A stretch of 39,724 bases of DNA from an uncultured archaeon (GTDB lineage: Archaea > Asgardarchaeota > Thorarchaeia > Thorarchaeales > Thorarchaeaceae). Where the stretch lies: contig CAZVZC010000016.1 of assembly GCA_964631415.1 (NCBI GenBank), positions 1 to 39,724 on the forward strand, read 5' to 3'. A program made the translations under genes and the position numbers. Shown here piece by piece: positions 14,846 to 31,773 of this stretch. The number at the start of each line of letters is the position of its first letter. Within the stretch, counting starts at the first letter, position 1. The notes beneath the pieces were generated by a model, which did no database searches, was not told the DNA's origin, and saw nothing but the letters and a program-made list of their open reading frames with translations.

Positions 14846-14936
14846 TGGCGGCCTCCCAAGAGAATCGAACTCTCATCGCTTGCACGATCATGGGTTTGAA
14901 GCCCATGGAACCAGACCACCGGTCCTTTGGGAGGCC
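14846..14936 (-). tRNA. selC: tRNA-Sec (anticodon UCA), 91 nt, CCA encoded
   Basis: 9-bp acceptor stem GGCCUCCCA/UGGGAGGCC, G discriminator plus CCA, 7-bp D stem with 4-nt loop, 6-bp anticodon stem CAUGGG/CCCAUG with loop CUUCAAA, variable arm with GCAA loop, 4-bp T stem AGAG/CUCU with UUCGAUU loop. Confidence 0.97.
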
Positions 14937-28289: not shown

Positions 28290-29879
28290 CTATTGAGAGC
28301 TGTGCAACGCTTCCCCCATCACGAGATTGGGGCTGAGAATATCTGTGACTCTCACGTTCAAAACGGTACCCGGGGAGTAGCCACCCTGAACAGTCATCAT
28401 GGGCCCGTCCGCTAGAGGATAGACCATCGTGTGGCCGTGCCTAGCCCAAGAGGGCTCGGCTGCCACGCCCCGTATGACGCGGCCGACATACTGAGCCTTC
28501 TTCGCACGATTGATCCTTTCGGCTTCCACGAGCATCCTTCTGGTCAAAGGAGCGTTGAGCGAAGGCGCCGGGAATTGCTCGAAGGCTGAACCTGGAAGTG
28601 GACGAAAACCATAGAGTATGATTCTCTGGGCACCTTCCTTGTCCAGTTCGCGCATCAATCTGACTGACTCATCCACTGTCTGCTCAGACTCGCCTGGTAG
28701 CCCATAGATCAGGTACACAAAGGGGTGCATACCGTGTTCCTTCGCAATCTTCACGGCTCTCACAACATCCGCAGGTGTGCCGCACTTGCCAATGTCACGC
28801 ATGTGTTGTTGCGATCCAGTTTCGAGCCCTATGTTGGGCCTAATCTCTTTCATGTTTCGGGATATCACGTCGCACACTTCGTCGCTCAGAAGACAAGCTT
28901 TCATGTTCTCTATGTCAATGTGAACGGACCCGTCTGCGACTTGAGGAAGGACTGCCAACGAACTTAGTAGGCGATCGACTGCATCGAGATTGGCCGCCGG
29001 TTCGCATGGATCTACGACATCTCCACTTCCCCGCATGTAGTCAAGGAAGTCTGGAGCCTCGAGAACAATTCGATGTACACCTAGGTCTAAGAGACCTCGG
29101 ACCTCCTCAACTATGGCGTCTGGAGACCTGCTTCTAGGCGGACCCCATGTGGCAGGCACGCTGCAGAAACCACAACCAGGTGGTATGTTCTCCGGACAGG
29201 CTATCCGGGCAGCTGGATCATCTGAATCGCAGTCACCACAGTCAGTACACTTGCGGCCGTCAGGAAGCCTGAGCCGCGTTCTTCTCATATTCGAGCATCC
29301 CCTGACAACCTCGACATAGACCCTGTCAGCTTGGTACGCGGGGTAGTCAACAGTGCGAGTTATAGAGGGTCTGTATTCGTCTGACATTTGGCTTGCCGAC
29401 AGCAGAGGACGACGGTCTGTCACAATTGGGTTGGGGCCGCGACGATAAGCGATGCCCTTGACATTGGAGAGATCAGTCTCACCAGATAGGAATCCCTTCC
29501 GGAGAAGCTCTTCAAGCGTTCCCTCTCCCTCTCCAATCACTATTACGTCAGGTCTGAGCTCAGACATCACCAGACTGTGGTCCGAGGAGATGGGACCCCC
29601 AACAAGAACCCTTCCAAGCGGTCTGGACATGCGCCAGCTGCTGATTACTCGTTTGGCGACTGGAAGATCCATTGTCATGGCACTCAGTGCCAAGTGCTGG
29701 AACCTGCGGTCCACGCTTCTCACTGACAAGAGCTCTTCAGCCATCTTGATTCGGCATCCGACGCCATTCTTCTCTAGGACGCCGGCCACAGTCCTAGGTC
29801 CACAACCTATGGAGTCCCGTGAACTCACTCTGCGGCCAGTACCCGAGCTGAGAGCGTCAACGATTAGCACTTCTGACAT
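28290..29879 (-). CDS. B12-binding-domain radical SAM protein with a C-terminal TRAM-like domain
   Basis: LVGGP, IGEGE, EVVRGC...GCGFC, GLETGS and IYGLPGES. Confidence 0.88.
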   Translation of the reverse strand: MSEVLIVDALSSGTGRRVSSRDSIGCGPRTVAGVLEKNGVGCRIKMAEELLSVRSVDRRFQHLALSAMTMDLPVAKRVISSWRMSRPLGRVLVGGPISSDHSLVMSELRPDVIVIGEGEGTLEELLRKGFLSGETDLSNVKGIAYRRGPNPIVTDRRPLLSASQMSDEYRPSITRTVDYPAYQADRVYVEVVRGCSNMRRTRLRLPDGRKCTDCGDCDSDDPAARIACPENIPPGCGFCSVPATWGPPRSRSPDAIVEEVRGLLDLGVHRIVLEAPDFLDYMRGSGDVVDPCEPAANLDAVDRLLSSLAVLPQVADGSVHIDIENMKACLLSDEVCDVISRNMKEIRPNIGLETGSQQHMRDIGKCGTPADVVRAVKIAKEHGMHPFVYLIYGLPGESEQTVDESVRLMRELDKEGAQRIILYGFRPLPGSAFEQFPAPSLNAPLTRRMLVEAERINRAKKAQYVGRVIRGVAAEPSWARHGHTMVYPLADGPMMTVQGGYSPGTVLNVRVTDILSPNLVMGEALHSSQ

Positions 29880-30047
29880 CTGGTCTACAGGCAACAAGTC
29901 AGTGTCCTTCTCTCTTTATTCTTCCTGACCGACAGCCAACCGTGCCAGAAACGCACGTATGGGGCATCTTGGGAGAGCTTATATCTGGGGCTGTCGGCAT
30001 AGAAGACCAGCAAATCGCTGGAAAACAAGTTTCAGGAGTAATTTAGG

Positions 30048-30374
30048 CTGAGTACAGACGGAGGTATTTGCCCAAACTGTGGCTTGCCCATGGATCTGTG
30101 CGTCTGTCAGACAATCGCACAGGAAGAAGCTAGAATAACTGTGAGCGTCGAACGCAGAAAGTGGGGTCGCCTGACCACCATAGTTGAAGGCTTCGACAAG
30201 AATACTGATCTCGGTCAAGTCGCCACGAAGCTGAAGAGCAAACTGGCCTGTGGAGGGGCTGCAAAGCATGGCCATATTGAGCTTCAGGGGGACCACCGTG
30301 GAGTCATTAAGGACATACTAAATGGCCTCGGCTTCCCTGATTCAGCGATCGCAGTAGACTGGGCCGGCAGATAG
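30048..30374 (+). CDS. sui1: Translation initiation factor aIF1/SUI1, probable CUG start
   Basis: GICPNCGLPMDLCVC, LKSKLACGG and IELQGDHR. In-frame TAA at 30039-30041 and SD AGGAG 9 nt before CTG 30048. Confidence 0.9.
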   Translation: MSTDGGICPNCGLPMDLCVCQTIAQEEARITVSVERRKWGRLTTIVEGFDKNTDLGQVATKLKSKLACGGAAKHGHIELQGDHRGVIKDILNGLGFPDSAIAVDWAGR

Positions 30375-30536: not shown

Positions 30537-31502
30537 TCACATAACGTTTAAGCTCATAGAGTCGATGCCGAGGACTCTGACGATTTCCTTGTACCTGTTG
30601 CGCACGGTGACCTCCGTCACTCGCGCAACCTCAGCAATCTCACGCTGGGTCCTTCTCTCATCCATCATGATTGATGCAACATAGATGGCGGCTGCCGCAA
30701 GACCAAGGGGGTCACGGCCAATTGTGAGACCCATGTCGCGACTCTGTTTGAGGATCTCAACAGTCCTCAGCTGCACTGGGCTGGACAGAGAGAGTTCGGA
30801 GGCAAATCGCGATATGTAGTCGACAGGATTGCTCAATGGTATCTTGATGCTCAGACTCCTGAGAAGCAACCTATAACACTGTCCAAGCTTCTTCTTGTCC
30901 ACTCTCGAAGCGTCTGCAACCTCATCCAGCGGACGTGGCTTCAGTCGTATCCGACAGGCCGCATAGAGGGTTGCAGCAACCATGGCCTCAATGGAGCGTC
31001 CACGAACAAGCTTCTGGAGGATTGACTTCCTATAGAGAAGTGCGGACAGCTCGCGTATCTGTTTTGGAATCCCGAGCTGCGAAGCCAGCCTCTCAAGCTC
31101 TGACATCGCCTGGGCCAAGTTCCTGTCCATGGAACTGTGAACCCTAGAACGAATCTGCCACTTCCGCAGACGGTAGATCTCTGACCTTCGATTCGGGCTC
31201 AGCTTCCGACCTGCCGTGTCTCTGTCGCGCCAGTCAATGACTGTTGAGAGACCCTTGTCATGGACTGAGTAGCGAAGGGGCGCACCCACTCTGCTCCGTG
31301 CATCAGACTCCTCGGAACTGAAAGCTCTCCACTCAGCTCCCGTGTCAATGCGGTGATCGGACAGGACAAGACCACAACCACCGCACACGCGTTCCCCTCT
31401 CGTCATGTCTTCAACGACAGACGTTGATCCGCATTCGGGACAGGATGTATGTTCCGCCGGAGTCTGCTCGGACGACCCCTTACTAGACGGAGAATCACGC
31501 AT
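30537..31502 (-). CDS. tfb: Transcription initiation factor IIB, paralog 2
   Basis: CPECG..CGGCG, DTGAEWRAF, HDKGLST and TEVTVRNRYK. Start could also be GTG 31511. Confidence 0.96.
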   Translation of the reverse strand: MRDSPSSKGSSEQTPAEHTSCPECGSTSVVEDMTRGERVCGGCGLVLSDHRIDTGAEWRAFSSEESDARSRVGAPLRYSVHDKGLSTVIDWRDRDTAGRKLSPNRRSEIYRLRKWQIRSRVHSSMDRNLAQAMSELERLASQLGIPKQIRELSALLYRKSILQKLVRGRSIEAMVAATLYAACRIRLKPRPLDEVADASRVDKKKLGQCYRLLLRSLSIKIPLSNPVDYISRFASELSLSSPVQLRTVEILKQSRDMGLTIGRDPLGLAAAAIYVASIMMDERRTQREIAEVARVTEVTVRNRYKEIVRVLGIDSMSLNVM

Positions 31503-31773
31503 CTGACCCACTTCTGCGCCTCCTTTCACGCCCGAGCCGGAACTACGCTGCCAGAAGTCGCTGACAGATGAACTATCGATACAGTCTCCCGGGCCAACGT
31601 CCAACCAAGCGGATGACGCCTTTTAAGGATTGAGCCGAGTCATGACGCCGAACATGTGGAGCTCGACAGCTCAAGCCGAGAGCCTACTCCTTCCAGTCCA
31701 TCACTTTGGGTCAAGTGCGAGCTGCCGTGGTGCGAACAGCATGTCAAACCAAGGCGACCTGCCAGGTTCGTGT

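Follow-up and report, generated by a model that had tools for sequence, protein, structure and literature searches.

Self-limitation of a start-codon fidelity factor through the poor start of its own gene is textbook knowledge for IF3 in bacteria and for eIF1 in eukaryotes. The bacterial gene is infC, which encodes IF3 and whose AUU start codon and translational autorepression were reportedly described by Butler and colleagues in 1987 and by Sacerdot and colleagues in 1996. In eukaryotes, the eIF1 gene (SUI1) has its AUG in a poor Kozak context, leading to negative autoregulation (Ivanov et al. 2010, PMC2964218; Martin-Marcos et al. 2011). The archaeal factor aIF1 is the ortholog of eIF1 and has the same role in start-codon stringency (PMC6237735). 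Binding to the 30S subunit and rejection of non-AUG complexes were reported for the factors of S. solfataricus and P. abyssi, and in vitro the S. solfataricus factor rejects complexes formed on AUU and on other codons than AUG (PMC4705826, PMC6237735). When the literature on archaeal aIF1 autoregulation, on non-AUG or CUG starts and on Asgard archaea was searched, no description of a near-cognate aIF1 start or of autoregulation was found, and the self-limitation known for bacteria and eukaryotes was thus without an archaeal case in any paper that we located. In Monestier et al. 2018 the eIF1 loop is mentioned only as a parallel from eukaryotes and not for aIF1 genes, a 2020 review of archaeal initiation makes no mention of a start-codon peculiarity or autoregulation of aIF1, and a 2021 review traces an apparent frameshift in S. 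solfataricus aIF1 to a sequencing error.

The aIF1 gene described here lies in the window, the whole stretch of 39,724 nucleotides that was analyzed, which belongs to a metagenome-assembled genome of 2.16 Mb (85% complete, 81 contigs). The named MAGs nearest to the source genome are Candidatus Thorarchaeota. The aIF1/SUI1 coding sequence (30048..30374, plus strand, 108 codons and a TAG) is the single SUI1 gene found in the genome and is flanked by a divergent gene for a B12-binding radical-SAM protein (28290-29897, minus strand) and by a convergent TFB gene (30537-31604, minus strand). Elsewhere in the window ARAGORN placed a tRNA-SeC gene with anticodon TCA (14846-14936, minus strand), which also matched Rfam RF01852 with 63 bits against a gathering score of 47, and selenoproteins are therefore probably encoded by this Thorarchaeota genome. 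A whole-genome ARAGORN run aimed at an unusual initiator tRNA recovered only 25 tRNAs, most of them with predicted introns, including one intron-bearing tRNA-Met(CAU).

The 108-residue product read from CTG 30048 matched the Pfam SUI1 family PF01253 (5e-17, 62.6 bits against a cut-off of 25.5), the NCBIfam model NF002096 (122.8 bits against a cut-off of 98) and the solved M. jannaschii aIF1 used in P. abyssi 30S initiation complexes (PDB 4mo0/5jb3/5jbh, 1.8e-27). On the strength of these matches, the gene is assigned as a bona fide aIF1/SUI1, the identity that a first-pass annotation of the same DNA had given it. Ile7 of the product aligns with residue 4 of the M. jannaschii protein and the zinc knuckle aligns from there onward, indicating that the knuckle is part of the mature factor. 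This N-terminal knuckle, CPNCGLPMDLCVC (30069..30107, plus strand), contains Cys8, Cys11, Cys18 and Cys20, which are invariant across 18 aligned aIF1 sequences, and the archaeal CxxC...CxC arrangement is complete only if translation begins upstream of 30069.

The reading frame of the knuckle is closed upstream by an in-frame TAA (30039..30041, plus strand). After this stop the frame reads TTT AGG, then the CTG (30048..30050, plus strand), then AGT ACA GAC GGA GGT ATT, and then TGC CCA AAC TGT of the knuckle, so that the peptide from the CTG is (M)STDGGICPNCGLPMDLCVC. The first-pass annotation had reported that the knuckle begins ahead of the first TTG and ATG, that no ATG, GTG or TTG occurs between the TAA and the knuckle and that an AGGAG stands 9 nt before the CTG; on re-reading the sequence each of these coordinates was found to be correct, and the frame gives the peptide that it had listed. 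The first canonical candidates, TTG 30084 and ATG 30090 (30084..30092, plus strand), lie inside the knuckle, past Cys8 and Cys11. Near-cognate codons between the TAA and the knuckle are limited to AGG 30045, CTG 30048 and ATT 30066, and the CTG is the sole one at Shine-Dalgarno distance. The AGGAG itself (30034..30038, plus strand) is kept in relatives, and its gap of 9 nt falls within the peak at 9-10 nt of the genome's own spacing, which ranges from 8 to 11 nt when measured from the end of GGAG to the start. Nine codons without a canonical start are not unusual by chance; what is beyond chance is that an essential single-copy gene is obliged to start there, with a well-spaced Shine-Dalgarno sequence and with a layout that is kept in 80 related genomes. 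The lack of a canonical start, the optimum spacing and the homologous Shine-Dalgarno-led codon across relatives together indicate that aIF1 very probably starts at CUG 30048, as had been proposed. Standard gene callers cut the protein to TTG 30084 and drop half of the zinc knuckle, which probably makes mis-annotation of aIF1 the norm in Thorarchaeota and similar lineages. An exact-product look-up of the truncated 96-aa protein, made for independent assemblies, returned nothing on record.

The start region was compared across a sample of 86 species genomes of the Thorarchaeota family, of which 81 contained aIF1 and 80 had its 5' end present, using in each aIF1 5' region the codons from the upstream stop to the knuckle. 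The codon homologous to CTG 30048 was GTG in 61 genomes, CTG in 18 and ATT in one, and was never ATG or TTG. CTG is fixed in seven genera, comprising g1 (this genome and both relatives with the gene), g5, g7, g10, g12, g13 and g14; GTG is fixed in g2, g4, g6, g8, g9, g11 and g15, and g3 has GTG plus the one ATT. Inspection of close relatives for ATG, TTG or GTG at this position showed CTG, which is present in the two relatives of the same genus that have the gene (85-87% protein identity) and in 15 further species, and GTG was met in more distant relatives. The occurrence of GTG at exactly the homologous position in these distant relatives marks the position as a start site. In 15 of the 18 CTG genes the open frame upstream is free of canonical codons throughout, and in nine species a stop precedes the CTG at a distance of one or two codons (TAA ACT CTG or TGA AAC CTG, for instance). 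The genus g12 has a GTG four codons upstream, within the Shine-Dalgarno sequence, as an alternative start candidate. In 79 of the 80 family genomes the start is preceded, at 8-12 nt, by an AGGAG, AAGGAG(T) or GGAGT. Serine follows the start codon in 76 of the 80 and is spelled by six codons (AGC, AGT, TCT, TCA, TCC and TCG); the Asp/Glu-Gly-Gly that comes after it also varies synonymously, and protein-level conservation is absent upstream of the NTG. Since the serine is kept through synonymous codons and nothing is conserved as protein upstream, translation begins at the homologous codon.

The distance from the Shine-Dalgarno sequence to the start is 8-10 nt in CTG-type aIF1 genes and almost always 11 nt in GTG-type genes, against a genome optimum of 9-10 nt. 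All contrasts between CTG and GTG agree in associating CTG with the shorter spacer, with 2-4 independent pairs, which are too few for significance. The shorter spacer of the CTG genes may compensate for the weak codon.

A TATA-like promoter element, CTTATATC (29978..29985, plus strand), was read directly from the sequence about 63 nt upstream of the start. An element at the matching distance is found in most of 37 Thorarchaeota loci, with a family consensus of cACTTATATG at 60-72 nt before the start codon. This distance implies that the aIF1 mRNA would be leadered, not leaderless, with a 5' UTR of roughly 35-40 nt if the predicted transcription start is correct. A palindrome, CCAGCAAATCGCTGG (30007..30021, plus strand), follows the TATA-like element at a distance of about 25 nt, close to where transcription is presumed to start, and is a candidate operator or 5' hairpin. 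In many relatives this place is occupied by related TAGCA-N3-5-TGCTA elements. They keep the sequence itself and do not covary, a pattern more suggestive of a site bound by protein than of a hairpin in the RNA. A bacterial promoter and terminator scan flagged the palindrome alone, its models being bacterial and not relevant to an archaeal promoter. Consensus folding of leader and start over 18 relatives gave no conserved RNA structure (-0.2 kcal/mol), and a riboswitch or hairpin-masking model is unsupported on this fold. Upstream ORFs at ATG 29959 and GTG 29942, ending at or near the CTG, were considered as coupling partners and rejected, being upstream of the TATA element and not conserved, and a frameshift route through an out-of-frame GTG located 7 nt before the CTG in some relatives was set aside because this GTG is not conserved either.

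Outside the Thorarchaeota we examined 54 aIF1 genes having a knuckle. The start was ATG in 40 of them, TTG in seven (five Methanomethylicia and two Halobacteriales), GTG in two (Heimdallarchaeota), CTG in two (Hadarchaeota), ATA in two (Baldrarchaeum and, probably, an Aenigmatarchaeota) and ATC in one (an uncultured archaeon). Outside loci with a non-ATG aIF1 include L053, L061, L062, L067 and L087; L084 and L085; L074 and L104; and L051, L055 and L099. CTG was also seen in the aIF1 of another Asgard family (G038). Across prokaryotes, well under 1% of genes have a non-canonical start. Measured against this general figure rather than against matched genes, CTG, ATA or ATC in five of 54 is therefore a marked excess of near-cognate aIF1 starts.

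In this genome CTG is not in general use as a start codon. When codons preceded by a Shine-Dalgarno sequence near the 5' end of open frames of at least 100 codons were counted, ATG, GTG and TTG stood out and CTG was about equal to CTC and CTT. A start-site model fitted by EM to 1,627 long open frames gave 0.45 for ATG, 0.17 for TTG, 0.10 for GTG and 0.045 for CTG, which is similar to the control codons CTC (0.050), TTC (0.040) and GTC (0.026) and at the noise level, both the counts and the model being rough with a noise of about 2-5% per codon. Among canonical starts the model assigned ~63% to ATG, ~23% to TTG and ~14% to GTG; the combined TTG and GTG share of ~37% suggests an unusually high use of weak starts, as far as the rough model goes. 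For other initiation factors, aIF2alpha and aIF2beta have ATG starts and aIF1A has ATG and TTG candidates.

The neighboring TFB gene provided a control for start-codon turnover. Across the same Thorarchaeota loci (33 species) TFB starts with TTG in ~19, GTG in ~13 and ATG in 1-2, and never with CTG; its layout is GGAGG, 7 nt and the start, which is GTG in this genome. TFB, a general transcription factor, likewise keeps a weak start codon. Avoidance of ATG is therefore not a peculiarity of aIF1, and a family-wide preference for weak starts, together with common ancestry, may account for it. On a TFB+aIF1 tree of 37 species, the aIF1 codon requires a minimum of five changes within the set of GTG, CTG and ATT, with ATG and TTG never reached; on well-supported branches alone 2-3 changes are forced, and the CTG states call for only two changes on well-supported branches and four on the best tree, which weighs against selection for CTG. 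The TFB control cuts both ways, since turnover to TTG and ATG occurs in the family, in TFB, and is absent from aIF1, yet weak starts are common.

If the gene starts at CUG, a self-limiting loop would be the likeliest function of that start. Transcription from the TATA-type promoter ~63 nt upstream would yield a leadered aIF1 mRNA on which the 30S subunit would be positioned by the AGGAG, with initiator Met-tRNA starting at the near-cognate CUG 30048 to give the product opening with (M)STDGGICPNCGLPMDLCVC. The initiator anticodon would pair imperfectly with CUG, with a mismatch at the first position, and aIF1 is expected to destabilize such complexes, so that it should repress its own initiation. 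Abundant aIF1 would cause its own CUG to be rejected more often, and when aIF1 is scarce the CUG would be accepted and more aIF1 would be made. Thorarchaeota aIF1 retains both the basic RKW loop and the ACGG loop, and 30S binding and rejection by the factor are predicted here from these loops. The fidelity and ribosome-binding loops (RKW, ACGG..K) are identical between CTG and GTG lineages, therefore the stringency of aIF1 does not look relaxed.

Negative feedback of this kind, which the first-pass annotation had put forward, would fit the restriction of CTG to aIF1 within the genome, the absence of ATG from all 80 family genes and the near-cognate aIF1 starts in other phyla. It is weakened by the ordinary GTG of three quarters of the family and by the neighboring TFB, which almost never has ATG. 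IF3 spares GUG and UUG. It may be that aIF1, like IF3, does not discriminate against GUG, and if so most of the GTG-starting relatives would be without the loop. Arguing by analogy with the known systems, we consider feedback through the start-codon stringency of aIF1 itself to be close to evenly balanced, with at most a slight lean against it, and the best explanation taken as a whole, a CUG start combined with a self-limiting loop, is one that we hold with as much credence as doubt. Rather more tentatively, near-cognate starts (CUG, AUU, AUA, AUC and perhaps GUG) might be a recurrent feedback device of archaeal aIF1.

The same start codon could also serve without any feedback. CUG would then be the real start and give only a low constitutive output, GTG having drifted to CTG in some lineages under the buffering of a good Shine-Dalgarno sequence, and we regard this as a serious possibility that falls short of being probable. 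It assumes that little aIF1 is needed and that Thorarchaeota put up with weak starts, and it is favored by the general frequency of weak starts in the proportions given above for the genome, by TFB, which has TTG or GTG in ~31 of 33 species, by the plain GTG of most family aIF1 genes and by the spacer of the CTG genes, which at 8-10 nt is more optimal than the 11 nt of the GTG genes and resembles simple output tuning. Drift, however, should yield ATG and TTG as well, as it does in TFB, and neither is present in the 80 aIF1 genes. CTG is moreover not tolerated elsewhere in the genome, near-cognate aIF1 starts recur in unrelated phyla, and the gene affected is that of the very factor which judges such codons.

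Initiation away from the CTG, either at ATT 30066 or at TTG 30084 or ATG 30090 with a truncated product and an incomplete knuckle, is very unlikely. TTG 30084 is the standard choice of ORF finders, and ATT is near-cognate and the probable start in one relative (L021). The GGAGG at 30060-30064 which might serve these codons leaves, however, a spacer of 2 nt to ATT 30066 and of 20 nt to TTG 30084, against the genome range of 8-11 nt, and it is not conserved as DNA, the Gly-Gly being spelled GGTGGA, GGCGGA and so on in relatives, so that it is not a Shine-Dalgarno sequence for ATT 30066. Upstream of the ATT, relatives keep Ser-Asp/Thr-Glu-Gly-Gly at the protein level while its codons vary synonymously. 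Initiation at 30084 or 30090, which the first-pass annotation had itself named as the alternative, would cost two of the four invariant cysteines and has no Shine-Dalgarno sequence at a usable distance, and the methionine at 30090 is variable (M/L/T/Q/K/V/S in relatives). An assembly or sequencing artefact, in which 30048 is in truth another base (A, G or T) or an upstream start is concealed by a frameshift, might be suspected in a metagenome-assembled genome that is 85% complete in 81 contigs but is scarcely credible, as CTG at this position in 17 other species-level genomes from independent assemblies, both same-genus relatives included, rules out a base error, as nine genomes have an in-frame stop one or two codons upstream, and as no out-of-frame start upstream is conserved. 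Taken together, other start sites and artefacts are highly improbable, and initiation at CUG 30048 is retained as the reading of this gene.

A CUG-starting aIF1 in an Asgard archaeon, orthologous to eIF1, is a concrete candidate for archaeal self-limitation of a fidelity factor, and it would show that CUG is usable as a natural start codon in an archaeon. The protein resembles the aIF1 of M. jannaschii, P. abyssi (PDB 4mo0, 5jb3) and S. solfataricus in family, length, zinc knuckle and fidelity loops; its start codon sets it apart from the other archaeal lineages sampled, in which aIF1 mostly has ATG. The resemblance to infC is that the gene of a factor rejecting non-canonical starts itself begins at a near-cognate codon led by a Shine-Dalgarno sequence, and that this codon is kept across many species and never replaced by AUG, a likeness qualified by the ordinary GTG of most relatives and by TFB, which largely avoids ATG as well. 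IF3 and aIF1 have unrelated folds, however, and the codon is AUU in infC but CUG here and GUG in most relatives. The AUU of infC is all but universal in bacteria, while the distribution of near-cognate aIF1 starts in archaea is patchy, and the autorepression that is proven for infC is for aIF1 suggested by analogy from the genes. With eIF1, aIF1 shares the SUI1 fold and, if the loop exists, a start site disfavored by the factor itself. The eukaryotic gene retains AUG in a weakened context within a scanning system, whereas here a near-cognate codon is placed by the Shine-Dalgarno sequence. Should the loop prove a recurrent archaeal device, bacteria, eukaryotes and archaea would all limit the factor that polices start codons through the start of its own gene, and Asgard archaea would have a functional equivalent of the eukaryotic eIF1 loop, perhaps even its forerunner.
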